Shown here: positions 40,565-53,505 of the stretch, piece by piece | How the letters are laid out: every line of letters begins with the position of its first letter | Numbering within the stretch: position 1 is the stretch's first letter | Assembly (NCBI RefSeq): GCF_003018235.1 | Contig: NZ_CP027437.1 | DNA length: 64,000 nt | Reading direction: 5' to 3' (one strand) | Origin: Escherichia coli | GTDB lineage: Bacteria > Pseudomonadota > Gammaproteobacteria > Enterobacterales > Enterobacteriaceae | Made by a program: the position numbers and the translations under genes | Notes under the pieces: model-generated | What the model was told of the DNA's origin: nothing | Seen by the model: the letters and a program-made list of their open reading frames with translations, nothing else | The model's database searches: none

Positions 40565-42024
40565 TGAAAAAATTACTGCGTCTTTTTTTCCCGCTCTCGC
40601 TGCGGGTACGTTTTCTGTTAGCAACGGCAGCAGTAGTATTGGTGCTTTCGCTTGCCTACGGAATGGTTGCGCTGATCGGTTATAGCGTCAGTTTCGATAA
40701 AACCACGTTTCGGCTGTTACGTGGCGAGAGCAATCTGTTCTATACCCTTGCGAAGTGGGAAAACAATAAGTTGCATGTCGAGTTACCCGAAAATATCGAC
40801 AAGCAAAGCCCCACTATGACGCTAATTTATGATGAGAACGGGCAGCTTTTATGGGCGCAACGTGACGTGCCCTGGCTGATGAAGATGATCCAGCCTGACT
40901 GGCTGAAATCGAATGGTTTTCATGAAATTGAAGCGGATGTTAACGATACCAGCCTCTTGCTGAGTGGAGATCATTCGATACAGCAACAGTTGCAGGAAGT
41001 GCGGGAAGATGATGACGACGCGGAGATGACCCACTCGGTGGCGGTAAACGTCTACCCGGCAACATCGCGGATGCCAAAGTTGACCATTGTGGTGGTGGAT
41101 ACCATTCCGGTGGAGCTAAAAAGTTCCTATATGGTCTGGAGCTGGTTTATCTATGTGCTCTCAGCCAATCTGCTGTTAGTGATCCCGCTGCTGTGGGTCG
41201 CCGCCTGGTGGAGTTTACGCCCCATCGAAGCCCTGGCAAAAGAAGTCCGCGAACTGGAAGAACATAACCGCGAATTGCTCAATCCAGCCACAACGCGAGA
41301 ACTGACCAGTCTGGTACGAAACCTGAACCGATTGTTAAAAAGTGAACGCGAACGTTACGACAAATACCGTACGACGCTCACCGACCTGACCCATAGTCTG
41401 AAAACGCCACTGGCGGTGCTGCAAAGTACGCTGCGTTCTCTGCGTAGTGAAAAGATGAGCGTCAGTGATGCTGAACCGGTAATGCTGGAGCAAATCAGCC
41501 GCATTTCACAGCAAATTGGCTACTACCTGCATCGTGCCAGTATGCGCGGCGGGACATTGCTCAGCCGCGAGCTGCATCCGGTCGCCCCACTGCTGGACAA
41601 TCTCACCTCGGCGCTGAACAAAGTGTATCAACGCAAAGGGGTCAATATCTCTCTCGATATTTCGCCAGAGATCAGCTTTGTCGGTGAGCAGAACGATTTT
41701 GTCGAGGTGATGGGCAACGTGCTGGATAATGCCTGTAAATATTGCCTCGAGTTTGTCGAAATATCTGCAAGGCAAACCGACGAGCATCTCTATATTGTGG
41801 TCGAGGATGATGGCCCCGGTATTCCATTAAGCAAGCGAGAGGTCATTTTCGACCGTGGTCAACGGGTTGATACTTTACGCCCTGGGCAAGGTGTAGGGCT
41901 GGCGGTAGCCCGCGAAATCACCGAGCAATATGAGGGTAAAATCGTCGCCGGAGAGAGCATGCTGGGCGGTGCGCGGATGGAGGTGATTTTTGGTCGCCAG
42001 CATTCTGCGCCGAAAGATGAATAA
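40564..42024 (+). CDS. phoQ: Sensor histidine kinase PhoQ
   Basis: 486-aa ORF with two TM segments, H-box and ATPase domain; overlaps the phoP stop. Confidence 0.95.
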
Positions 42025-42110
42025 ATATGTCCTTTTATCATTAAACACAACCAACCAATTGATTTAATTAAATAAATCTCACTACAGAAAGTGCCAAAAA
42101 TCGCAAATTG

Positions 42111-42131
42111 ACTACACCATTAACTACACCG
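42111..42131. repeat. 21-bp direct repeat ACTACACCATTAACTACACCG (candidate att core, left copy)
   Basis: Perfect copy at 53485..53505; imperfect similarity continues for ~40 bp to the right of both copies. Confidence 0.7.
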
Positions 42132-42286
42132 TTCGGTGCACTGTATGAAACAACGTGGAACAAATAGACACAAGAAATATATGGGCGGGTAATTTATCTA
42201 TGTGAAAGCGTGCCGACTAATAGGGCGTTAATGTCGATATGGGGATCCCCATATCGGGAACCATACCGGAATTTTTGCCAGGTTAA

Positions 42287-42409
42287 ATGTTAACCGCTGC
42301 CCTGTTAACATTTTTACCAAAAAGGTAGTTAACATTTTTTGCACGCAACCATATGAATCATAAAGACAAAATCAACAACAACGCTTCATCAGGCAGTTAA
42401 CATGTTAAC
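42287..42409. promoter_or_regulatory. Cluster of GTTAACAT / ATGTTAAC half-sites, including the 14-bp palindrome GTTAACATGTTAAC (candidate iterons/operators or packaging site)
   Basis: Motif at 42287..42294, 42304..42311, 42328..42335 and 42396..42409 in a gene-free ~0.8-kb terminal region. Confidence 0.4.
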
Positions 42410-42833
42410 TACTACAAAACGGTAATTTTTTCTCTGCGTGAGAGTGGGCGCGGTGTCCGAATTGTTCGTTGTTCGTGGCTAACCGCTCCCCCCCCTATAC
42501 CGGATTTTTTTCCGGTTAATCTTTAATCAGGCTGGTGGGGGTTACATACCCTTGATCACCGTAATGATGATTCAGGTATGCACCTTTCCCCCCGATGGGG
42601 TAAAAGCATCAACCGTAACGGTAATATCTGCCTTGATGGTCTGCGTGGTCATTATGACCATTCAGCCAATGACCTTAATCAGAATTTTTCGCTAAAAAAT
42701 GATGTTGGCCACGTCGTCCGGAAAGCACAAAATCCCGTCGATTTTTAATTAACGGTTAAACCGCCTTTTTGTCACGGTGTGTCACTGGTTGCCACTCACC
42801 GTCACGATGTCCGCTCGCCTGGCTGTAAATTAA

Positions 42834-42852
42834 ACTACGAAAATTTCGTAGT
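42834..42852. promoter_or_regulatory. 19-bp perfect palindrome ACTACGAAAATTTCGTAGT (followed by GGGACTACAAGTCCC palindrome)
   Basis: Read directly; lies upstream of the left-end hypothetical gene. Confidence 0.4.
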
Positions 42853-42925
42853 TGTGAGGGACTACAAGTCCCGCGCAAATTTCCCCCGGTCCCCTCAAAT
42901 TGAGGTTGCCGGAAATATCAACCAG

Positions 42926-43207
42926 TTACCGCCGTAACCGCTCCAGCTTCTTCCAGTGGTACGTAATTTTCTCTTTCTCCCGGTACATCTCAACGCGGCG
43001 ATTGTAGGCCAGCATTTCCAGAACGCGGATCCGTATGTCGCGCATATCTACATCGTTAAGCTGGATACCATCACGGCGCATCACCTCAGCAACCACACGC
43101 GCATAATTTTCAGCGGTCACGCTGTCCGGCTGCGTTGCCTGTTCGTCAGCCTGCTGGCTGATTCCTGCAACGCGGTGGATTAATCGCAGTATTTCGGCTT
43201 CTGTCAT
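42926..43207 (-). CDS. Hypothetical protein (93 aa)
   Basis: ORF 42926..43219; probable start ATG 43207 (MTEAEILRLIHRVAG...) with G-rich SD. Confidence 0.5.
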   Translation of the reverse strand: MTEAEILRLIHRVAGISQQADEQATQPDSVTAENYARVVAEVMRRDGIQLNDVDMRDIRIRVLEMLAYNRRVEMYREKEKITYHWKKLERLRR

Positions 43208-43241
43208 TGTGCCCCCCATCGTTCTAATCGTCTGGTGTCGT

Positions 43242-43295
43242 CGGGTCCTTCCTGGAATTATGGCCCGTTACGGGGCGGCGACCTCGCGGTTTTTC
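43242..43295. repeat. Inverted repeat, left arm (terminator-like hairpin plus T-run)
   Basis: Reverse complement of 43887..43940; the inner 32 bp are identical. Confidence 0.75.
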
Positions 43296-43521
43296 ACTAT
43301 TTATGAGATTTTTTAGGGGGTGGTTGTTGTTTAATTGTTTGTCATATCTATTTGATAACTAAGTAAAAATAGAGAGCAATACAACAACCTGATAGTGTTT
43401 TTTGATGCTACAAATAAAAAAAATGCTAATTGAATCAAATAGTTTTACAAAAATACGTGGTTGTTGTATTGCGTATTTGATGGCGTAACAGAAAGTGATT
43501 TTGAACTTTGCTGTTCTGTGA

Positions 43522-43731
43522 CTACTGATTGTTCCATGCTGGCGCGGCGAACGCTTCGGCATGACGCCCCCCAGCCAGAAAACCAGCCATTTTATTTCGT
43601 GCTTTGCTCACATCTTCCGGTGAGTAGCCGTAAATCTGTAAACCTTCATTGAATCGATGTTCTGTTTCTTCACTTGAGTACTCGTCGCTCTCCGATGAAA
43701 TCAGCCTGGCAACTTCAGTCTGCGTAGCCAC
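43522..43731 (-). CDS. Hypothetical acidic protein (69 aa)
   Basis: ORF inside the inverted-repeat-bounded cassette, downstream of CATGTCCGG repeats. Confidence 0.4.
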   Translation of the reverse strand: MATQTEVARLISSESDEYSSEETEHRFNEGLQIYGYSPEDVSKARNKMAGFLAGGRHAEAFAAPAWNNQ

Positions 43732-43753
43732 TCCTCACCTCACAATCACGACA

Positions 43754-43860
43754 AAACCGGTCATGTCCGGTTTACATGTCTATTTTTTGCGCATGTCCGG
43801 TTCATGGAAAGCCTATTTTTATATTTTTCATATAGTTAACTTGCAGAGAAACCGGACATG
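43754..43860. promoter_or_regulatory. Three copies of the CATGTCCGGTT(T) motif, including the 20-bp palindrome AAACCGGTCATGTCCGGTTT (candidate operators)
   Basis: 43754..43773, 43792..43806 and 43848..43860 (inverted). Confidence 0.45.
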
Positions 43861-43886
43861 GATCCCGGAAAATTTTCATAAATAGC

Positions 43887-43940
43887 GAAAAACCGCGAGG
43901 TCGCCGCCCCGTAACGGGTCCATATGCCGGAAAGGACCCG
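43887..43940. repeat. Inverted repeat, right arm; acts as minus-strand intrinsic terminator of the capsid operon
   Basis: Hairpins followed (on the minus strand) by a T-run, 30 bp after the stop of the 137-aa gene. Confidence 0.75.
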
Positions 43941-43969
43941 TAAAAAAGCCGGATTTCTCCGGCCTTGTC

Positions 43970-44383
43970 TCAGATGGTTTTCAGTATGCGATCGATGTCG
44001 CCGTCATCGCCCGGGTTTCTGCCATCGTATGCCATGCCAGCTGATACGGCTTGCGGGCTGTGCATGTCCATAAAGTTTTCAAAGGCTGCGGTAAGCTCTG
44101 GTGCAACCTTCAGGCGTTCCTGCTCTATGGTCATGCTAAGGATGCTTTTAGCCGTACCAACATCGATACAAGGCACGTTTGCCATTGCACGTAACAGCGG
44201 CTGATAGTCGCCAGATTCATCAAGCGCCATAATCGCATCAGAGCGCGGCTTGTCCTTCTCTTCCAGGCTGTTAAGTTGATATACGGCCTCGTAGGTTGAT
44301 AAACCTCTGTCAGCCATTGCCCGCGCTTCGGCCTTAAATTTACTCGCCAGCGGTAGCGTCATGATGCTTTCATTCGTTGCCAT
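43970..44383 (-). CDS. Hypothetical protein (137 aa), capsid-module associated
   Basis: ORF directly downstream of the decoration-like gene. Confidence 0.5.
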   Translation of the reverse strand: MATNESIMTLPLASKFKAEARAMADRGLSTYEAVYQLNSLEEKDKPRSDAIMALDESGDYQPLLRAMANVPCIDVGTAKSILSMTIEQERLKVAPELTAAFENFMDMHSPQAVSAGMAYDGRNPGDDGDIDRILKTI

Positions 44384-44395
44384 CGTTACCCCTGC

Positions 44396-44731
44396 TTATC
44401 GCGCCAGCGGCTGAACGGATACGCCAGAACCCGCAAAGGCGGCGCATTTTTTCGCGTCGGTGTCGACGCTCTCAGGCCAGTTTACAGCGGCGATATTGAA
44501 TATCCCCGCCTTGTAGCACTGTGCTGATTTCTGCTTTGACGTGTCCACGGGGTACGACGTCAGGTAAACAGCCTTGCCCGATTCCTGACCATCCCACGGT
44601 TTAAACTCGCCATTGTCCGCCAGCATCAGCGGGGTAAATTCCTGAATAACGCCAGCATCAGCGGCAAAATGTACCAGCGTCGTGGCGACCTGCTGACTGC
44701 CTGCAAATAACTCAATGTATGGAGTGTCCAT
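44396..44731 (-). CDS. Lambda gpD-like head decoration protein
   Basis: 111 aa; aligns to recalled lambda gpD (TPLMLxxxxxxxxxWDG..., xYKxGxF, WPE, KKxxAFAGxxxS). Confidence 0.7.
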   Translation of the reverse strand: MDTPYIELFAGSQQVATTLVHFAADAGVIQEFTPLMLADNGEFKPWDGQESGKAVYLTSYPVDTSKQKSAQCYKAGIFNIAAVNWPESVDTDAKKCAAFAGSGVSVQPLAR

Positions 44732-44742
44732 AGAATTCCCCG

Positions 44743-45798
44743 TTAACCAATTTTGACGGTAACAAATTTGCGAATATCTGCCGGTACCGGCTGCGGTGCG
44801 CTGTGTGTCTGCACGTACTCAATCGCCGGATCGCCGTCTTCAATCCAGTTTTTCGGGTAGAACATGTTTTGCGTTGCGCCCGTTCTTACCGCTTCCTGAT
44901 CCATAATCGCACCATAGGCCACCAGCCCTTTATTGTTGGTGTTACCCAGGACCAGCAAATCAGGCTCAAGGAAATATTTTTCGGTGCCGTCGCTGTCAGT
45001 GTATTTGCCGGAATAGACGATAAGGGCCAGATCACCAAGATAGCCTTTAAAGCTCACCACTTCGCCCAGGTTTTTACAGGCCAGTTCGGCGGCGGATTCT
45101 GAACCACGGGAAAGATCGTACAGCTCACGGAATTTTTTAAAGCTGCGTAATGTGCGCCATACCTCAGCGCCCATAATCATGACGTTTGCGGGGCAACCAG
45201 CCTGATCAGCATAAAGCTCGATGTCATAGATTGGGTCGTGCATGTCTTTATCCTGCTCGGACCATTTTTTACCATTGGCCTGCTCTATGATGCAGTTTTC
45301 CGGTATTTTCCAGTCGATTTCATAGCGTTCTATGCCTTCGCCCTCAATGATGTTTTTTCCGGTCGTTACCGCATTCACCGCCAGCCATTCCACGCGTGCC
45401 TTAATGGCGTTTATCTGGCGGCGCACGTTGCCAGTAATCAGGCGCATGCGTCGGTATGTAGGGTCGTTAAGCTGTGCCGGATCTTCTCCAGCCATGCGCA
45501 TGATGGTTTTTGTTGGATCGATTTCATGCTTTGGCTTCATGTAGCCGGGTTTAATCGTGCTGGTTTCGTACCCTTTATCGCGCTGGACATGGCTACCCAC
45601 CATAGGCGAACAGAACGCTGACATCGTAACCTCTTCAATGTCCAGGGTGTCCAGCATGATGCTTTGGGTGTTGAAGGTCGCCACGTTCGGGAAAAACAGC
45701 GTGGTAAACAGCGGACTGAATTTAAATTCAGCAATATCCCCGCGATTCAGGTACGCGAAAAGCTGGTTAGTGTTAAGTGCCGTTGCTTTTCCTGCCAT
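44743..45798 (-). CDS. Lambda gpE-like major capsid protein
   Basis: 351 aa; conserved blocks KFxFxPLF, TPGYxKPKHE, DPxYRRxR, YPKNWxxxGDP relative to recalled lambda gpE. Confidence 0.8.
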   Translation of the reverse strand: MAGKATALNTNQLFAYLNRGDIAEFKFSPLFTTLFFPNVATFNTQSIMLDTLDIEEVTMSAFCSPMVGSHVQRDKGYETSTIKPGYMKPKHEIDPTKTIMRMAGEDPAQLNDPTYRRMRLITGNVRRQINAIKARVEWLAVNAVTTGKNIIEGEGIERYEIDWKIPENCIIEQANGKKWSEQDKDMHDPIYDIELYADQAGCPANVMIMGAEVWRTLRSFKKFRELYDLSRGSESAAELACKNLGEVVSFKGYLGDLALIVYSGKYTDSDGTEKYFLEPDLLVLGNTNNKGLVAYGAIMDQEAVRTGATQNMFYPKNWIEDGDPAIEYVQTHSAPQPVPADIRKFVTVKIG

Positions 45799-46004
45799 TA
45801 TTCACCCCCATGAGTCTGATTCATGCCCAGCGCCGCGCGTAAATAGGCGCGTACCTGCCAGCCTGTTGACGGCTCAACCATCGCCAGCGGATCAAGTCCT
45901 GCCGCAATGCCTGCTTTTACGTTCTGCTGGTGGCGTTCCTTGAGCGCCTCCACGATGTCGGGGCTTATGTACACCGAAACACCGCCTTTTTTCTCTTCTG
46001 CCAT
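45798..46004 (-). CDS. Hypothetical protein (68 aa) upstream of the capsid gene
   Basis: ORF with start/stop overlap with the capsid gene. Confidence 0.4.
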   Translation of the reverse strand: MAEEKKGGVSVYISPDIVEALKERHQQNVKAGIAAGLDPLAMVEPSTGWQVRAYLRAALGMNQTHGGE

Positions 46005-46166
46005 TGGTTGAAATTCCTCTTTAACAAAAAAAACATAACTGGATGAAAATCCAGTTGTGATTATAATTGTGATTGCACTTTGTGCAACGATATTGAGTTA
46101 TATTGCAAATTATGAAATGATTATCCCGATCATGTGTGTCAGTGCACCAAAAAAAACTCATATGCA

Positions 46167-46207
46167 AAAGCCCGATAAGACCCCTCTGACCTTATCGGGC
46201 TTTTTTA
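46167..46207. terminator. Bidirectional intrinsic terminator between replication and capsid modules
   Basis: Stem gcccgataag/cttatcgggc with TTTTTT on the plus strand and a T-run on the minus strand. Confidence 0.55.
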
Positions 46208-46409
46208 TCTGTCGGCAAAGACATCGAACAAAAATTAATCACAATCATCATCTTTTTTTCATCAATGCGATTAAAAACAATAAATTACGCTCATGATGAT
46301 GATGACGATAAAACCACAAAAATGCGCTTTTTTCCGCGCCACCCGTCCCGTGGATGGTCCCGCCAGCCAGGAGGACCCATAAAAAAGCCGGATTGCTCCG
46401 GCTCTGCTC

Positions 46410-46682
46410 TCACTTCTGCGGGTAGTTGCGCCATATTGTTTTCCCTATACCATCTATCCCCATTTGTTTTTCAGTGCGATCAACCGACCGTTTCAGCGCG
46501 CCAAAACCATCCGGCGGCTCCGGTGGCCTCTGTGCCTTCCTGGAACATTCCAGCCGTCGCATTGCCACCTGTGCGCGTTCCTTGTCTGTCTCCACCAGCT
46601 GCATGACTTCACCCCATCGCGCGGCCGCCCTCCGGTAAAAGCCTTTCGACTCGAGTTCCTCCGCTATGCGGTCATGTACCAT
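46410..46682 (-). CDS. PerC-like transcriptional activator
   Basis: ORF 46410..46802; probable start ATG 46682 (strong SD, 10 nt after the SSB stop); motif GFYRRAAARWGEVM resembles the PerC RGLWRRAADLW motif. Confidence 0.5.
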   Translation of the reverse strand: MVHDRIAEELESKGFYRRAAARWGEVMQLVETDKERAQVAMRRLECSRKAQRPPEPPDGFGALKRSVDRTEKQMGIDGIGKTIWRNYPQK

Positions 46683-46692
46683 CCTCACCCCC

Positions 46693-47103
46693 TCAGAACG
46701 GAATACCATCACCGTAAGGGTCATCGCCTCCCGCTGGTGGCTGATTACCCTGTGTGCCTGTGGTTGTGCGTCGGCTCCCGCCAGGACGTGCCGTACGGGC
46801 ACTGATTACGCTGTCTGCAATGACCTGATAACCCTGCCGCGTTTCGCCGTTCTGTCCGGTCCACTGGCTTACCTGCATGTTACCCGCCACGCTCACCAGT
46901 TCGCCTTTGTGGTGTTTTGCCAGTGCGTCGGCCTGTCTGCCAAACGCCAGGACGGATAACCACATCGTCGCCGTTCCGTCATCTGTCTGGCTGCATGGCA
47001 GGGGAACCGCCATACTCGCCATCGCCATTTGTGTCCCTTTGCTGGTGGTCTTTAACTGCGGGTCAGCCACCAGCCGTCCGTAAGCCGCTATCTGTGCTGT
47101 CAT
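46693..47103 (-). CDS. Single-stranded DNA-binding protein (SSB-like)
   Basis: 136 aa; OB-fold-like N-terminus and C-terminal acidic tail ...DDPYGDGIPF (SSB signature DDDIPF). Confidence 0.7.
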   Translation of the reverse strand: MTAQIAAYGRLVADPQLKTTSKGTQMAMASMAVPLPCSQTDDGTATMWLSVLAFGRQADALAKHHKGELVSVAGNMQVSQWTGQNGETRQGYQVIADSVISARTARPGGSRRTTTGTQGNQPPAGGDDPYGDGIPF

Positions 47104-47342
47104 GCTGTCTGCTCTCCGGTTTTAACGTTGATGGTTGTTACCTGTTCCGCTTCGGCAATCTCCCGTTCTGTCAGCGTGGCAAAGTTTGCGGCCGCTGTGG
47201 TCATGAATGCGCTTATCAGTTCTGGATGTTCCTTCGCGTATCCTTCCCGCGTGTGGCGGTCGATGATTTTTATCGCCACCCTCAGCCAGTGTTCTGTAAG
47301 GTCAATGGCGCGGTGATCTGTCTTTTTGTGGCTTACCTTCAT
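47100..47342 (-). CDS. Hypothetical protein (80 aa)
   Basis: 4-nt overlap with the SSB start. Confidence 0.45.
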   Translation of the reverse strand: MKVSHKKTDHRAIDLTEHWLRVAIKIIDRHTREGYAKEHPELISAFMTTAAANFATLTEREIAEAEQVTTINVKTGEQTA

Positions 47343-47345
47343 GAT

Positions 47346-47669
47346 TTACTCCAGGGTACCGCTATTGCTGCAGTCGTTAACCGGATACCAGGCAAATACC
47401 CATGACTCACCGCAGTGAACAAACTTCTTATCTGGCAGATAAAGGCACTCGAACATTCCCTCATCAGGACTATGCGGACTCACGCCAAGCTCACTGGTCA
47501 GCACGGGTAAGATTTCGCGGTAAGTATCCCCAGTGCCGAAATGGTTGACCTCACAAAGCGCCCATGCAGCAATTGGGCTATACCATTCCGTGCCGTCGTC
47601 GTCTTTGAACTTCGCCCACCAGCCAGGAAGGGCGGTTGATAAGCTCAGTGTTTCAATTTCAGATTTCAT
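47346..47669 (-). CDS. Hypothetical protein (about 107 aa)
   Basis: ORF 47346..47714; start placed at MKSEIETL. Confidence 0.45.
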   Translation of the reverse strand: MKSEIETLSLSTALPGWWAKFKDDDGTEWYSPIAAWALCEVNHFGTGDTYREILPVLTSELGVSPHSPDEGMFECLYLPDKKFVHCGESWVFAWYPVNDCSNSGTLE

Positions 47670-47915
47670 AAATTCACCTTCTGTATTTTGTCCTGCTGTT
47701 CGATTTTTATTCATTACTCACCACTCCTCACTTTTACTCCTCACTTTTTAAGTTGCCTCACTTCGTCTCACTTGAGATTTTCGTGTTTTCTATTAATTTG
47801 TTTTATAAGATTTTTTTCACTCCTCACTTTTGAGGATGTATACAGGTGAGAAAGTGAGTAATTGTGTTAATATTTTGTAAAAACCTCACCGTTACTCACT
47901 TTTGCTACTCACTTT

Positions 47916-49325
47916 TTACAGTGGTCCTACATCATCACCATCAATGTAAATCACGGCGTCTTTTTCCAGTTTGGCTAACCATCGCCGCATATTTTTCACG
48001 TCATACCCAAGCCGTTTCATGTCATCACGTAACAGCGCAATAGTGCACTTGTCGCCGTTCTGTGTGCGTGAACGTATGCACCCCCATAGCGCGGTATGGT
48101 TTTCCGTCTTGTTGCCTGCCTCCTCGATGCGCTCCAGTTCAACAGGAGGACGCGGCTTATCCACCACCACCAGCGACGTGATTAATTCGCCGTCAGCGTC
48201 GGTAAAAAGCTCCACTACCCGCAAATCGTAGGCGGCTTCTTTGAGTTCCTCTGCGTCCTTCATTTTTGTGCATGAGATAACCAGGGCTTCGCTTCCTGCG
48301 TCCTCTCTGCGTATCCGGTATTCAGCGTCCAGTGATGCACGGAATGCACTGGAACCACGCGCGCCCTTTGTTTCATCTTTGCCGGAATGGTGAACCACCA
48401 GCACCGTGGACCCTGTGCGTCGTTTCAGTTCGTCACATCCACGGATAAACGCCCCCATGTCACGGGAGTCATTTTCATCATTGCCGCCAAAGCAACGCGC
48501 CAGCGTATCCAGAATAATCATTCGAACAGGTTTACCCGTTTCCCGCTCCACCTGGCTGGCTGCGATAACCATTTCATCAACATCAAGCGGGGCCGCCGGA
48601 AAGACCGGACGGTTTACCAGATACAGATTTTTCACCTGTACATCGTGCACAACCTCCCAGGCTTTTATGCGACGCGGAACGCCTATACCACCTTCACCAA
48701 CCACATAGAGAACAGAACCATGTGCAACCCTGCGGCCTCCCCAGTGGCGGCCCGTTGAAATGTGACACGCCCACGAACCAGCAAGAAACGATTTATAGGA
48801 TCCGCTCGCTCCGTATATGCTGCACAGCGACGCCGCCGGAATAATGCCCTTAACCACGTAATCCAGTTGCGTGTCATATCCGGTAGATCCAACGCTCATC
48901 GGTAGCGTGGTGTTTCGTTGGGGGTTTTTTGCCATTACCAGGCTTTCCCCTCTCTCCCATGTCTCCCGCAACCGTGGTAGCTGGTCGGTCCATTTCTCCA
49001 GCAATTCGAAATTTTCAGAAAGCAGTCGCGCTTCCCTGACTCCGGCAATCGCCAGTTTCGTCGCGATGGTTAGCAACTGCTCTTCGTCAATATTTCCGGC
49101 GCGTATCACTGTGACCCTGTGCCGCCCCTCATCAACAATTTGCAGATTATCCAGTTCGCTTAACTGATAACGGCCCAGGTAAACGGGAGGCGTCGGGTCT
49201 CCCGCCTTTTTGGCCTGTGCAACGATGTAATGCTCTGCAAATGAGTGAGCATCAACACCCGCGAAAATAATCGCGTCGGTGTACTTATCTTTCGGTAATA
49301 GTTTTACGTTCGGTGCCAGTTTCAT
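47916..49325 (-). CDS. Replication protein with RecA-fold (RepA/AAA_25-type) helicase core, Pri-Rep-like
   Basis: 469 aa; Walker A-like GASGSYKS, Walker B-like MIILDTLAR, SGKDETKGARGSSA motif typical of RepA-type helicases of satellites and plasmids. Confidence 0.7.
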   Translation of the reverse strand: MKLAPNVKLLPKDKYTDAIIFAGVDAHSFAEHYIVAQAKKAGDPTPPVYLGRYQLSELDNLQIVDEGRHRVTVIRAGNIDEEQLLTIATKLAIAGVREARLLSENFELLEKWTDQLPRLRETWERGESLVMAKNPQRNTTLPMSVGSTGYDTQLDYVVKGIIPAASLCSIYGASGSYKSFLAGSWACHISTGRHWGGRRVAHGSVLYVVGEGGIGVPRRIKAWEVVHDVQVKNLYLVNRPVFPAAPLDVDEMVIAASQVERETGKPVRMIILDTLARCFGGNDENDSRDMGAFIRGCDELKRRTGSTVLVVHHSGKDETKGARGSSAFRASLDAEYRIRREDAGSEALVISCTKMKDAEELKEAAYDLRVVELFTDADGELITSLVVVDKPRPPVELERIEEAGNKTENHTALWGCIRSRTQNGDKCTIALLRDDMKRLGYDVKNMRRWLAKLEKDAVIYIDGDDVGPL

Positions 49326-49621
49326 TTTTTACCCCTGAATCCGTTAATCATGTTTTTCATCTTCTGAATATTGGCGCGGGCCTTCTCCCTGCTGGTGGGC
49401 TGGCTGCGTTGCGCTGCCTGTACCAGAGAAAAATCACGCCGGAACTGATAAACAGGCATCACGCAGTCATATTCGTAGCCTTCACGGCGGTAGGTTACGC
49501 GCCGTTCCTCCACGCCCTTGATCATTACCGTGCCGCCGTACTGGTCGCGGTAAATATCCCCGCGCATGAATTTAGTGCGAGTTTTGCCGCTGGCAGTTAA
49601 GCCAGAATATTTAAGTTTCAT
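49322..49621 (-). CDS. Hypothetical basic protein (99 aa)
   Basis: 4-nt overlap with the replication gene start. Confidence 0.45.
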   Translation of the reverse strand: MKLKYSGLTASGKTRTKFMRGDIYRDQYGGTVMIKGVEERRVTYRREGYEYDCVMPVYQFRRDFSLVQAAQRSQPTSREKARANIQKMKNMINGFRGKK

Positions 49622-49626
49622 TATTT

Positions 49627-50109
49627 TTATTCTCCGGTGTGGGGCGTTTTATTCTGTTCGCGTAATAACTCTTTTTCTCTTAAATTGAATTCAGCTACGT
49701 AATCGGCATAATCAGCGGTAATATTCAGTACATCCACTCCCGTTGCTTTATATTCTTTCATACCAAGTAAGAAAAAAGATGCCCTTATCAGTTCCGATAT
49801 TGATGAAAGCGCATCAGTCGCATCATCGGATAATCCTGAAAATTCCTGTTTCAGGGCATTAAAACGATCATCACGCATAACCCCCCCATTTTCACAATCA
49901 GCAATCAGGATAGCTTTGGCCTCATTCAGTGCCATATCAGCGGTAAGCTGTGCGTATGCCAGTGAATGCGGGATTATTGCCCCGGTATATTCCGTCTCTC
50001 TGGTAATGTGTTTTTCTGCGGTTGCTGCCGTGCATGAAATATCAATCAGCGCGTGCATTAGCGTTCTGATAGCTTCGGCGGCTGCGTCCGGACGGATGTT
50101 ATTGCACAT
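49627..50109 (-). CDS. Hypothetical protein (160 aa)
   Basis: ORF in the leftward operon. Confidence 0.45.
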   Translation of the reverse strand: MCNNIRPDAAAEAIRTLMHALIDISCTAATAEKHITRETEYTGAIIPHSLAYAQLTADMALNEAKAILIADCENGGVMRDDRFNALKQEFSGLSDDATDALSSISELIRASFFLLGMKEYKATGVDVLNITADYADYVAEFNLREKELLREQNKTPHTGE

Positions 50110-50716
50110 GTATCACCCCCTGACGAATACGGGCGGCGAATACAGCAACACAACCAGACGGGCAACGGCTACGCGCTTCGCGTTCCGTCCAGGCGGTGAC
50201 GTGGATGATTTGGGATTCTGACGCGCAAAAGATGATAAAGCGCCAGATAAAGGCAGTTTGAGAATGTACGAGGGTAGGGATAGTAGCCATGTTGGCAGCC
50301 TCCTTTATCGTTGGGATAACCCCACCGCCGGAGGTGGTAAGCTCGCTGGCGGTGGACTGTACGGAGTTACCACAACTGGCGATAAAGGAAACCAGCCCGA
50401 CCGAAGTCGGCCCCGTACAGCCCACCATTGTAAAGGTGTGCGTGTGCGCCGATACAAAAAAAGACGCGTGCGGCGTCTGTATCGCCTTTATCTCCAGCGG
50501 GGTGGTAATCCCGGCACCCGTTTTATGAGGTGCACGGGAATCATAGCCATTTCCACCAGTGGCGATCAACTGGTTTTTCTGGCGAGCTTCCTGTTCGCTG
50601 GTGGCCTCAATGGTAATCACGCGCGGTTGTGCCGTGCTCAGGGCGATAAAACGCCAGATGTATTTATTCAGGTTGTACGAGCCCCGCCCTTGCGGGTGTG
50701 TGGTATGATTTCTCAT
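50099..50716 (-). CDS. Uncertain ORF spanning a tandemly duplicated ~0.4-kb module
   Basis: Frame open from ATG 50716 (GAGG SD) to stop 50099; a second SD plus ATG at 50290 inside; DNA-level paralogy between ~50221..50340 and ~50619..50750. Confidence 0.3.
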   Translation of the reverse strand: MRNHTTHPQGRGSYNLNKYIWRFIALSTAQPRVITIEATSEQEARQKNQLIATGGNGYDSRAPHKTGAGITTPLEIKAIQTPHASFFVSAHTHTFTMVGCTGPTSVGLVSFIASCGNSVQSTASELTTSGGGVIPTIKEAANMATIPTLVHSQTAFIWRFIIFCASESQIIHVTAWTEREARSRCPSGCVAVFAARIRQGVIHVQ

Positions 50717-50813
50717 AGCTACCTCGATACTCTGGTTATCGTTGGTGGTTAGACGCCCTGCATGTGTTGCGAGCACTGCGGGGCGTTGCTTAATTTGAGT
50801 AACACCACTCAAA

Positions 50814-50895
50814 CTGTGCGCACAGATTAAAATTATGTATGCGCACACATCAATACTTAACATCTCGTTTTTTTTGCTGTATTGTGTGCGCCCAT
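50814..50895. promoter_or_regulatory. Operator cluster between divergent operons: palindrome CTGTGCGCACAG plus two related TGTGCGC sites
   Basis: 50814..50825 perfect 12-bp palindrome; 50835..50850 near-palindrome; about 50883..50893 third copy. Confidence 0.5.
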
Positions 50896-50921
50896 AAAGT
50901 CCATTTAAGTAAGGTGCATCA

Positions 50922-51119
50922 ATGTCTAGCGGTAACACAAACAACAAATCAGCAAAGAAAAATATTCGATTCCCACATGAGCTTATAGATGGAATTGATG
51001 CCAGCGTTGAACAAGAAAAATTAACTAATCCTAGTGCTAATTTTTCCGCATGGGTCTTGGATGCCTGTGGACGCAAATTAAAATATGAACAGCGCCGCAA
51101 GGCCAAAGAATCAGAATAA
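50922..51119 (+). CDS. Small ribbon-helix-helix-type DNA-binding protein (candidate island repressor)
   Basis: 65 aa; KKNIRFPHELIDGIDA...FSAWVLDACGRKL pattern; divergent from the replication operon. Confidence 0.5.
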   Translation: MSSGNTNNKSAKKNIRFPHELIDGIDASVEQEKLTNPSANFSAWVLDACGRKLKYEQRRKAKESE

Positions 51120-51176
51120 TTACTATCAGCGCCGTGGTGTGAGGTACTCCGGCGCATTGCTTTACAGGTACACACA

Positions 51177-51401
51177 ATGACCAAAGGCACATCATCACCG
51201 GAAAACGGCGAAATTACGCCAACATATGAAATTATCCGGCAAAGGCAGTCAGAAGCCTGCGCCAGACTTGAGGAAGAACTAACCAGAACAAAAATACCAC
51301 CAGCGCCGCGCTTAGCGCCACCAGAAAAATTTGCCCTTGAAGATTTTGTCGAGAAATACCCACGGCGGCTTAAATCTGGTAAAAACCGCCCGCCAGGCTG
51401 A
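51177..51401 (+). CDS. Hypothetical protein (74 aa)
   Basis: ORF downstream of the RHH gene. Confidence 0.4.
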   Translation: MTKGTSSPENGEITPTYEIIRQRQSEACARLEEELTRTKIPPAPRLAPPEKFALEDFVEKYPRRLKSGKNRPPG

Positions 51402-51665
51402 TAGCATTGTCCACCAGCAATAGAACGGTTATCATGCTCTGGCTTATGTTTGGGATCACATACACATAAGGTGCAGCGGGTTAATTGTTCAGAAAGGCGG
51501 TTCCATTTCGGGGCCGCTTTTTTTATGCCTGAAAAACCCCAATTTTGTTGTTTTCCAGTCTCACCAGGGCGAACGAATCCCCGCCCACATTCGGGCGCAT
51601 ATTCAATCTTCATGGTTATATCTCTGTATTAGTGGATGTGTGGCGGCTGCGTGCCGCCAGCGTGA

Positions 51666-51854
51666 TTAATGAACTGCCTTGCAGCTATCCTTCCAGGCCA
51701 GAACCTCGGATAAAGACCAGCCAACGGAACGACCGCCAAGTTTACGACGTGATGGGAATTGTCCGGCCTTTTCCAGGCGGTAGCGGCATGAGCGGCTAAG
51801 GCCTGTTAGCTTTTCGCATTCTTTTTCACGTATAAACCGATCAGTGCTTAACAC
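51666..51854 (-). CDS. AlpA-family excisionase / transcriptional activator
   Basis: 62 aa; LTGLSRSCRYRLEKAGQFPSRRKLGGRSVGWSLSEVLAW matches the AlpA helix-turn-helix pattern. Confidence 0.7.
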   Translation of the reverse strand: MLSTDRFIREKECEKLTGLSRSCRYRLEKAGQFPSRRKLGGRSVGWSLSEVLAWKDSCKAVH

Positions 51855-52228
51855 TATTGCCCCCTTTCGTTTCTTAAAGAGTTATTTCGTGTTCTATTGC
51901 GTTGGGATGTGTCTGATTGTGTCAGGATGATTCAGAGTTGGCAAATGTTGAGGTCGTATGGTTTACAGAAAGAGGAACAATCAGGATAAAATCATTTAAA
52001 TTCATGTTAATACAAAGGCATAAAATCTCGTTTTATGCCTTTTTTCTCACGTGTTAAAGCGTTATTCGCTAATGTATAAAAAACCAGTCACACAAATAAA
52101 ATCAGTCACTTATAAACCTGCGTACTTTTTCGCCTCTTGTTCGTGGTTGTTCCACGTTGTTTCACATTGTTCGCCGTTGTATCTGTGTGCTTATCCAGTA
52201 TGCGCATACTGAAAAAACACGAAAAAAA

Positions 52229-53476
52229 TTATTTTCTTCTGGCTGCTGGTAGTGCGGTTACGTTTTCTTGTGTTCCCGCCAGTATCCCTAACCGCTCCGT
52301 CCACATATCCAGCGCATTGCGTTTAGCATCCAGATAACGGGAATGATTATAAACTCGCTGCATTCCTGGCATCTGGTGGCCTGTAAGCTGCTCCACGACG
52401 TGAGGATCCACGCCTAAATCGTTCAGCATCGTTGTAAAGGTGCGCCGGATGTCATGTAGTGACCAGTGAGGGTGATTTAGCCTCCTGTGCGCTAATCTGC
52501 CGTACTGCGACACGCTTGTTTCCTGTTTCACTTCCCCCAGCAATAAGCCCGTGTTCCTGTTCTGCTCCACCAGCTGCGTGACGAACGGCAGTATTGCTTC
52601 CGGTATGGGCCGGAATATTGCCACCTTCGTTTTGCTGTGTTCTTTCGGCACGGTCCAGAGCATTTCGGTAAAATCCCACTCTCTGATCTCCGATAACCTC
52701 AGTTCTACCGTCCGGCATCCGAACACAATCAGGAGGCGGATTAACGCGATGTAGTAAGGGGAAAATATTTTTTTGTCCAGTGCCTGCAATAATTCGCCCA
52801 GTTCTTTGGTGCTTAAGACACGCTCGCTTATATCCGGTTTTTTCCCAACGTCCGCCACACTCATATCATCAAGAACGTTGCTGATTGCATAGCGCCGCCT
52901 CCTGCAGAACTTAAGCGCCTGTTTGCACGTCTGTAGCAAGAATCCGGCAGTAACAGGCGTTCGCTTTGCCACCTGGTCAAAACAGGCCAGCCAGTGCCGT
53001 AGCTCGCATTTATCCAGCGGCATAGCACCAATGTGCTGTATTACGTGATTATTAAGGCGCTTTTTCAGGGCGGCATAATCCACGCGATTTTCCTTTGCGT
53101 ACGACTCAAGCCAGTAGGTGAGCGCATCGCCAACCGTTACCGGCTTTAACGCTTCCTGTACGGTGTAATTCATTTCATGACGTGGATTTTTCCCCTCTGC
53201 CAGCCATGCGCGACACTGGGCGGCTTTTTCCCTGGCTGATTTCAGGCTCAGATCAGGATAATTTCCCAGCTTAATGCGTTCCGGTGGTGCCCCCCTTCCC
53301 GTTCCGGCCCTGTAAGTGAAATACCAGGTTAAAAGGCCACTGGTTGAATGCCTGACGCTCAGGTTTCCACCGTCATTAAGAAAGGCTGTTTTTTGGGCGG
53401 GTGTGCCGTTGATTTTCCTCAGCTGTGTATCGCTCAGTTTGTTAAGTGCTCTGCTCATAATTTTGATTCCGGTCAT
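52229..53476 (-). CDS. Tyrosine site-specific integrase (P4-type)
   Basis: ORF 52229..53479; R...HxxR...Y catalytic-region motifs (HDIRRTF, GHQMPGMQRVYNHSRY); adjacent to the right repeat. Confidence 0.8.
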   Translation of the reverse strand: MTGIKIMSRALNKLSDTQLRKINGTPAQKTAFLNDGGNLSVRHSTSGLLTWYFTYRAGTGRGAPPERIKLGNYPDLSLKSAREKAAQCRAWLAEGKNPRHEMNYTVQEALKPVTVGDALTYWLESYAKENRVDYAALKKRLNNHVIQHIGAMPLDKCELRHWLACFDQVAKRTPVTAGFLLQTCKQALKFCRRRRYAISNVLDDMSVADVGKKPDISERVLSTKELGELLQALDKKIFSPYYIALIRLLIVFGCRTVELRLSEIREWDFTEMLWTVPKEHSKTKVAIFRPIPEAILPFVTQLVEQNRNTGLLLGEVKQETSVSQYGRLAHRRLNHPHWSLHDIRRTFTTMLNDLGVDPHVVEQLTGHQMPGMQRVYNHSRYLDAKRNALDMWTERLGILAGTQENVTALPAARRK

Positions 53477-53484
53477 CACAATTA

Positions 53485-53505
53485 ACTACACCATTAACTA
53501 CACCG
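53485..53505. repeat. 21-bp direct repeat ACTACACCATTAACTACACCG (candidate att core, right copy)
   Basis: Identical to 42111..42131; preceded by an extra ATTAACTACACC unit. Confidence 0.7.

Follow-up and report, generated by a model that had tools for sequence, protein, structure and literature searches.

A conserved divergent operator region and a candidate YlcI/YnfO-family regulator at the early promoter of an EcCICFT073-type phage-inducible chromosomal island

The 64,000-nucleotide stretch of Escherichia coli DNA analysed here (assembly GCF_003018235.1, contig NZ_CP027437.1; hereafter the window, with positions counted from its first nucleotide) contains an 11.6-kb island at 42023-53639, which is bounded by GGACATATTT direct repeats (42023-42032 and 53630-53639) and inserted between phoQ and roxA (ycfD) in a surrounding E. 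coli-type chromosome. Its attachment (att) core, insertion site and size match those published for EcCICFT073 (PMC6092414, Table S1). The island is a relative of this prototype of the Gram-negative phage-inducible chromosomal islands (PICIs), and is itself an EcCICFT073-type PICI. Our subject is the region from which its genes diverge. A leftward operon leading to the replication genes starts with an ATG at 50716 (minus strand), and a rightward open reading frame (ORF) of 65 amino acids (aa) occupies 50922-51119 (plus strand). The latter encodes a protein of the YlcI/YnfO family (DUF3950), our candidate repressor; a 74-aa ORF follows it, and further on the minus strand lie alpA and the integrase gene int. 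The 205-bp gap between the two divergent starts holds three short related sites that are conserved in position and covary in sequence with the 65-aa protein.

Three related sites in the divergent gap

The three sites have the general 12-bp form GTG-TGCGCA-CAC and are regarded here as candidate operators. O1 (50814-50825, CTGTGCGCACAG) reads CTG-TGCGCA-CAG, a perfect 12-bp palindrome; it overlaps the putative leftward -10/+1 and its position is kept in relatives. O2 (50837-50848, GTATGCGCACAC), which reads GTA-TGCGCA-CAC and lies 23 bp from O1, fills the spacer beside the leftward -35. O3 (50884-50895, GTGTGCGCCCAT; GTG-TGCGCC-CAT) is degenerate and lies across the -10/+1 of the putative rightward promoter, that of the 65-aa gene. 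The first-pass annotation, made from the letters of the window, had reported a perfect palindrome with two related copies in this gap, and all three are indeed there.

The putative leftward early promoter combines a -35 element TTGATG (50848-50853, minus strand), which is TTGACG/A in relatives, where GTCAA is a conserved anchor, with a -10 element TAATCT (50824-50829, minus strand) at an 18-nt spacing, which is TATGGT, TATAGT or CATACT in relatives. The putative rightward promoter of the 65-aa gene (50857-50885, plus strand) consists of the -35 TTAACA (50857-50862), 17 nt and the -10 TATTGT (50880-50885).

As a heptamer, TGTGCGC shows no enrichment over the whole window (16 matches versus 13.4 expected). 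Allowing at most one mismatch, the decamer TGTGCGCACA is found four times in 64 kb, three of them inside 80 bp, a clustering whose chance is about 3e-5 as estimated from the background rate. A survey of 27 related loci placed the exact decamer nowhere but at the corresponding positions of the switch, with distances of 23 and 47 bp. This comparative evidence for the reality of the sites is stronger than their clustering in the window. Besides, a perfect palindrome with the same TGCGCA centre (GTATGCGCATAC, 52198-52209) lies directly past the stop codon of int; three islands that share the 65-aa allele have it in identical form, whereas in CFT073 it is degenerate. It might perhaps be a fourth operator that ties the candidate repressor to the int-alpA region.

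Conservation of the region in other satellites

In scans of species-representative genomes and viral contigs, the 65-aa protein had a homologue at 77 loci; with E. coli E110019, 042 and CFT073 added, the set comprised 80 loci from the Enterobacterales and the Orbaceae, with 58 distinct upstream regions. The switch architecture is the same in all 80, and they have a common layout: replication genes, DUF4222 and an Icd-like segment in a leftward operon, the small gene rightward and, beyond a variable segment, the leftward genes alpA and int. In CFT073, RefSeq now annotates a 59-aa 'YlcI/YnfO family protein', encoded by C_RS30120, at the same position and in the same orientation. The module also occurs in the cf-PICI of strain E110019. 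The same switch allele as in the window is found in a capsid-encoding satellite of E. coli 042 (NC_017626.1, 2240252-2254834), which is inserted in the large terminase gene of a prophage and is a helper-embedded PICI as described by Mageeney et al. 2023 (PMC10111431).

Across the loci, the sites follow the consensus (G)GTG-N6-CAC(C), and their placement relative to promoter-like hexamers is strongly conserved. The pentamer GTCAA, the reverse complement of the leftward TTGAC -35, directly abuts O2, an arrangement present in 54 of the 58 distinct upstream regions. A leftward TAnnnT located 16-19 nt from this -35 and running into O1 was found in 49 of them, and on the rightward side 42 contain TAnnGTG, a -10 element TAnnGT whose last bases open O3. 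O1 and O2 are separated by 23 bp in most loci. The spacing is 34 bp, about one helical turn more, in one clade (L075-L077); another locus (L035, 3871-3926) has four sites at 23-bp intervals and a further one (L042, about 3917) has lost one site through a 23-bp deletion. The region is a conserved divergent promoter/operator region.

Covariation between the sites and the 65-aa protein

The outer GTG/CAC of the sites is constant across islands, whereas the central hexamer is island-specific but common to all sites of one island. The centres seen are TGCGCA (window), TGCACC, CA[CT]A[AT]A, TTTAAA, TTGGGG and TCCGCA. They track four residues of the 65-aa protein, at positions 11-14, which precede an [IV]RFP motif. 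AKKN at these positions goes with TGCGCA and AKKH with TG[CTA]ACC; TTKG is found with centres of the CA[CT]A[AT]A type, ranging from CATATA to TATAAA. Proteins with xYKG have TTTAAA (TGTAAA in one TYKG lineage), and those with ATKG have TTGGGG, with CATAAA at one ATKG locus. Operators differ even where the helices of the proteins are otherwise identical. In Mantel tests on 47 unique protein/operator combinations, operator distance correlated with residues 11-14 when the rest of the protein was controlled for (partial r = 0.38, permutation p = 2e-4), while the reverse partial correlation was r = 0.13.

No such association holds for AlpA, Int or Icd. The same 65-aa gene, with the same operators, occurs together with AlpA alleles that are 60-66% or 94-100% identical to that of the window, and also pairs with different Int and Icd types. 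Conversely, the AlpA proteins of the window and of EcCICFT073 are 95% identical, yet their 65-aa homologues share 34% identity and their operators are unlike (GGTGTGGCCCAC in EcCICFT073). Because the hexamer covaries with residues 11-14 and not with the AlpA, Int or Icd alleles, the 65-aa protein is supported as the best candidate for the operator-binding protein.

Family and predicted fold of the 65-aa protein

Membership of the YlcI/YnfO family is well founded, the protein scoring 59 bits with NCBIfam NF041551 (cut-off 30) and 28.3 bits with Pfam DUF3950 (PF13132; cut-off 25). Homologues measure 59-70 aa and carry the RefSeq name YlcI/YnfO family protein. Literature searches found no functional study of YlcI, of DUF3950 or of ribbon-helix-helix (RHH) proteins in PICIs.

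An RHH fold is probable. Sub-threshold Pfam matches point to several families of the RHH clan, namely HicB_lk_antitox (its RHH part), Arc, NikA-like, CopG_antitoxin, RHH_1 and RHH_5; HicB_lk_antitox, the first of these, is matched by 8 of 37 family members (best value 0.002) and Arc at 0.009, all below threshold. With hhalign, KSAKKNIRFPHELIDGIDA aligns on Arc residues 6-24 (KMPQFNLRWPREVLDLVRK; Arc sequence checked against the PDB) with P = 0.005-0.007 and a probability of 5-7%. This register places K12, N14 and R16 on Arc Q9, N11 and R13, which are the base-contacting strand residues of Arc, and R16 is invariant. On the other side, neither a Foldseek search of the AlphaFold2 monomer against the PDB nor profile searches of the PDB sequences, for which one shallow and one deep alignment served as queries, returned a match, and hhalign against CopG found nothing. 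Domain and profile scans detected no helix-turn-helix (HTH) domain. The first-pass annotation had called the protein RHH-type and named structure prediction as a test of that idea. The weak clan matches and the Arc register speak for its proposal, but the test itself gave little: the monomer model has two helices (19-35 and 41-64) after an unstructured N-terminus (predicted local distance difference test, pLDDT, 75), and a linker-fused dimer showed no strand pairing at a pLDDT of 56, a model too poor to count either way.

Homologues also exist outside the islands. Phage lambda, DE3 and many Shiga toxin (Stx)-converting phages encode one (43% identity) near the right cos end, which is unannotated in many records. 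The K-12 copies are ylcI in DLP12 and, by name alone, ynfO in Qin. We found no GTG-N6-CAC sites upstream of K-12 ylcI, and this gene, which sits between ybcW and nohD/cos, was dropped as a model of the switch. A 'transcriptional repressor' label in Pasteurella phage Pmp7 was rejected, as it belongs to an overlapping ORF on the opposite strand and not to the homologue. A transcriptome supplement for CFT073 was uninformative, the homologue being missing from the annotation used there.

The leftward operon and the rightward unit

Between O1 and the start codon, the leftward operon has a conserved leader (50725-50786, minus strand). Its hairpin 1 (50753-50786) is followed by the single-stranded CUAACCACCAA and by hairpin 2 (50725-50741), which adjoins the Shine-Dalgarno sequence. 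In an alignment of 31 loci, compensatory changes affect 12 of 16 pairs, and the single-stranded motif CUAACCACAA separates the two hairpins; the leader has no Rfam match. A first Icd-like segment comes next (50537-50716, minus strand; NCBIfam phage_ICD_like, 3.1e-10), and with it opens a frame of 205 codons (50099-50716). Two predicted RNAs lie inside this frame, which is labelled Ash or Icd-like in RefSeq-style annotation. One is an isrK-like RNA of the P4 seqA type (50457-50533, minus strand; Rfam RF01394, 63.5 bits versus a gathering score of 50), ending in the intrinsic terminator AGACGCCGCACGCGUCUUUUUU at 50462-50478, and the other an antisense immunity RNA of the C4/CI type (50345-50432, minus strand; RF01695, 78.4 bits versus 45). 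The Phage_ASH match in Pfam extends over the RNA genes, so that this protein family may partly be translated RNA. C4 and isrK matches in Gram-negative PICIs have already been noted by Mageeney et al. 2023 (PMC10111431). The remainder of the operon (47916-50344, minus strand) contains a second Icd-like segment, a 160-aa unknown, DUF4222 and a 469-aa AAA_25 replication ATPase. The description of this unit as a replication operon, given in the first-pass annotation, is too simple, since the structured leader, the Icd-like ORF, the isrK-like RNA and its terminator, and the C4/CI-like RNA all stand at its beginning.

On the other side of the gap, the 74-aa ORF (51177-51401, plus strand) is predicted to be co-transcribed with the 65-aa gene, and the two-gene unit ends in an intrinsic terminator (51491-51525, plus strand; hairpin and U7, -20.7 kcal/mol, z = -3.0) that is weak in the reverse orientation (-9.8 kcal/mol, z = -0.9). 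The 74-aa protein was already listed as an unknown; indeed it has no Pfam, NCBIfam or PHROG match, and only its C-terminal FALExF motif is common to the small genes of other E. coli islands. Outside the E. coli group, the gene is absent or replaced while the switch remains. To judge from this distribution, it is a lineage-restricted passenger that stands outside the conserved switch.

A model for early control of the island

The first-pass annotation had likened the locus to a repressor/operator switch. Its conserved divergent architecture and the covariation of the sites with the 65-aa protein support this in part, while binding and the direction of regulation are what we infer from sequence. 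We consider it probable that the region is an operator/regulator switch that is read by the 65-aa protein and represses the leftward promoter, in an Mnt/Arc-like and autoregulated manner. According to this model, 50753-50921 would be the control region of the PICI, with two back-to-back promoters firing in opposite directions. In the resting island, the rightward promoter would produce the 65-aa protein, whose probable RHH dimer would bind the three GTG-N6-CAC sites. At O2 and O1, the protein would occlude RNA polymerase at the leftward early promoter and thereby prevent expression of the Icd-like, DUF4222 and replication genes while the island is resident; at the weaker O3, which covers the -10/+1 of its own gene, it would restrict how much of itself is made. 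The central hexamer would be read by the residues that immediately precede the [IV]RFP strand, so that specificity would differ from island to island. Transcripts that escape would, in this island, meet the isrK-like terminator RNA and the C4/CI-like antisense RNA, as in P4/P1 immunity.

Such a repressor would not stand in for AlpA. Induction of these islands requires AlpA, which stimulates expression of its own gene, and it is the helper phage that turns alpA on; a global repressor of Gram-negative PICIs was considered unclear in the same work (Fillol-Salom 2018, PMC6092414). The suggestion of the first-pass annotation that a dedicated RHH repressor would set this island apart from satellites relying on AlpA-type activation does not hold, as the island carries alpA (51666-51854, minus strand; Pfam Phage_AlpA, 5e-18), convergent with the 65-aa gene unit, and EcCICFT073 itself has the same module. 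An AlpA-family protein of Pseudomonas is described as a Q-like antiterminator (PMC7969949, PMC9371919). We speculate that AlpA-dependent transcription from upstream might override or bypass the repression, as P_LL does relative to P_LE in P4. It could do so by reading through the small-gene cassette in antisense, past the repressor on its sites and past the terminator of isrK.

Alternative explanations

Several points weigh against the repressor model as a whole. With sites only 100 bp from the gene, linkage may account for part of the covariation, the partial test notwithstanding. The YlcI/YnfO family may also lack a single function, because its members in lambdoid prophages sit near cos and have no GTG-N6-CAC sites. 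Finally, a consensus promoter scan gave no leftward promoter, and the TAATCT -10 of the window with its 18-nt spacer is weak. The 65-aa protein might also bind the sites in another capacity, as an activator or as a Cro/Arc-like regulator of the lytic phase, and would then not be what maintains repression in the resident island. Back-to-back -35 elements and an 18-nt leftward spacer are compatible with promoters that need remodelling, one RHH protein of the P22 immI region (Arc) acts in lytic growth, and the direction of regulation by the 65-aa protein cannot be told from the sequence. We nevertheless regard this possibility as unlikely, since the placement of O1 and O2 over the spacer and the -10/+1 corresponds to classic occlusion positions, and the 65-aa gene has its own promoter and terminator and points away from the helper-induced alpA unit. 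Owing to these last features, expression in the resting state fits.

It seems to us quite unlikely that the small protein has a different role and that the sites are read by something else, for instance by AlpA, by the product of the Icd-like segment, by a protein of the helper phage or by a factor of the host. AlpA is the experimentally known regulator of such islands (PMC6092414), the PHROG label of the Icd-like segments is 'transcriptional repressor', and operator binding by the 65-aa protein is itself a prediction; however, in both directions, the operator type goes with the 65-aa allele and not with that of AlpA, Int or Icd. As for the PHROG label, its probable origin is the cI region of P4, whose product is an RNA. 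A host factor is further disfavoured by hexamers that differ among islands of one host species. GTG-N6-CAC is 2 bp shorter than a CRP site, and CRP or another host factor was rejected on the wrong spacing and the island-specific centre. Very improbable, too, is a type II toxin-antitoxin (addiction) pair made up of the 65-aa gene and the 74-aa gene, with an RHH antitoxin that autoregulates and has an incidental leftward effect. The layout, in which an RHH-like gene precedes a small one and an operator covers the promoter, and the weak HicB-like and CopG_antitoxin matches would suit such a pair, but two of the three sites are on the leftward promoter and not on that of the 65-aa gene, and the second gene, devoid of family matches, is conserved only in the E. 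coli group. The pair is disfavoured because the 74-aa gene is replaced or absent elsewhere, so that a conserved downstream toxin partner is missing. As for palindromes that would be chance features or part of a cos or ori element, the lack of window-wide heptamer enrichment is all that speaks for them; sites that are clustered, conserved in position and covarying across 80 loci effectively refute this last explanation. A cos site was rejected as well: because both copies of the lambda-type cosN (at 43273 and 43898) sit 7 kb from the switch, the latter is not a packaging site.

Comparison with known immunity systems

By analogy, the closest functional counterpart of the proposed repressor switch is the Mnt/Arc system of P22 immI, and its positional resemblance is to Stl of the SaPIs, the pathogenicity islands found in Staphylococcus aureus. 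As in P22 immI, where Mnt and Arc control the divergent Pant and Pmnt, a small candidate repressor gene diverges from the operon that it would control, the operators are short and symmetric and lie across back-to-back promoters, the repressor probably controls its own gene, and the local sequence register of the 65-aa protein fits the Arc strand and helix 1. In contrast, the present protein belongs to DUF3950/YlcI and not to the Arc/Mnt family, its fold being unproven; three sites lie here, 23 and 47 bp apart, and the operon comprises the Icd-like and replication genes of a satellite instead of ant.

P1 immI combines the C1-controlled Op51, the c4 antisense RNA, icd and ant, and P4 has P_LE, seqA, the CI RNA inside eta and a P_LL-vis bypass. 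The present island resembles both in its predicted C4/CI RNA and isrK/seqA element, which lie upstream of an Icd-like gene at the start of an early operon leading to a replication gene, as expected for RNA immunity of the P1 immI/P4 CI type. Like P4, it also has an AlpA/Vis homologue upstream. Unlike P4, whose P_LE has no divergent protein repressor, its leftward promoter is flanked by candidate protein operators, and P1 uses C1, which does not belong to the RHH proteins. No ant was found in the island, nor any ANT/KilAC domain in the downstream ORFs scanned, and its promoter does not correspond to a constitutive, unrepressed P_LE. The two RNAs were rejected as an obligatory part of the switch: at the gathering score, they are missing from EcCICFT073, 042, E110019 and 19 diverse loci, all of which keep the protein switch.

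The likeness to Stl (Rpr), which acts as master repressor in SaPIs/Gram-positive PICIs and has str divergent from it, lies, apart from these being phage satellites too, in a regulator gene between the int side and the replication operon and divergent from the operon. Only this position and orientation resemble Stl, which is a larger HTH repressor derepressed by helper proteins, whereas the present proteins are RHH-like and of 59-70 aa, and the island also needs the activator AlpA. We know of no helper-encoded anti-repressor for this system. The system is not Stl-type, C1-type or toxin-antitoxin-type. EcCICFT073, finally, has the same att core, phoQ-ycfD site, size and gene order, with a probable RHH gene and a three-site switch at the same position; it differs in the 65-aa allele and operator, as described above, and in a primase in place of AAA_25, the isrK and C4 RNAs being additions of the present island.

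Implications for satellite biology

Autoregulated repressors of an RHH-like type are familiar devices. The new element is that we assign such a role to the YlcI/YnfO family, at the early promoter of Gram-negative PICIs and of their prototype too, and that a specificity code is apparent; we met no description of this in the literature accessible to us. To our knowledge, the EcCICFT073-type islands are a class without an identified repressor, and the switch bears on this open question. Our analysis pinpoints a small conserved gene, with sites on the early promoter, in EcCICFT073, in the E110019 cf-PICI, in the 042 helper-embedded PICI and in satellites of many Enterobacterales, gives the DUF3950/YlcI/YnfO family a testable function and predicts its DNA-specificity residues. 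It may also be relevant to engineered PICI 'drones', in which unintended repression or derepression of replication would affect the yield.

More tentatively, and with more doubt than belief on our part, the YlcI/YnfO-type RHH protein could be the master repressor that has so far been missing from Gram-negative PICIs, including cf-PICIs and helper-embedded PICIs, a functional counterpart of SaPI Stl in a dozen or more specificity types that helpers defeat in order to induce the island. If so, it would have been overlooked because its gene was unannotated in CFT073. A four-residue code reading the centre of GTG-N6-CAC would then define immunity groups among satellites. Defeat of the repressor could be indirect, via AlpA-driven and terminator-resistant read-through, or direct, via a phage protein, conceivably the YlcI homologue near cos of lambda and Stx phages.

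Further features of the island and the window

As in a PICI of the EcCICFT073 type, int and alpA are found at one end and are followed by a replication module; the criteria applied also included a size of 10-15 kb, an att site unused by prophages and the absence of lysis and tail genes. The genes found are int (a tyrosine integrase; 52229-53479, minus strand), alpA, DUF4222, AAA_25, SSB and PerC, whereas an E-like capsid gene and a decoration gene were called by gene-order match to the annotated CFT073 island. In order, int and alpA on the minus strand are followed by the small-gene pair on the plus strand and by the leftward operon, with the Icd-like ORF, the 160-aa unknown, DUF4222, the AAA_25 ATPase, SSB, PerC and the genes matching capsid and decoration, an order identical to that of the CFT073 island.

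The lambda cohesive-end sequence GGGCGGCGACCT occurs in two exact copies of opposite orientation (43273-43284, plus strand; 43898-43909, minus strand), in agreement with the cos1/cos2 sites reported for EcCICFT073. Between int and alpA, (G)AACAA(C) motifs are iterated at 52140-52190 (minus strand) and kept in CFT073 too; Int/AlpA probably bind to them as arm-type sites within the attachment region. Elsewhere in the window, the small RNA C0299 (Rfam RF00119, 112 bits) is encoded at 10252-10330 (minus strand) and bears no relation to the island.

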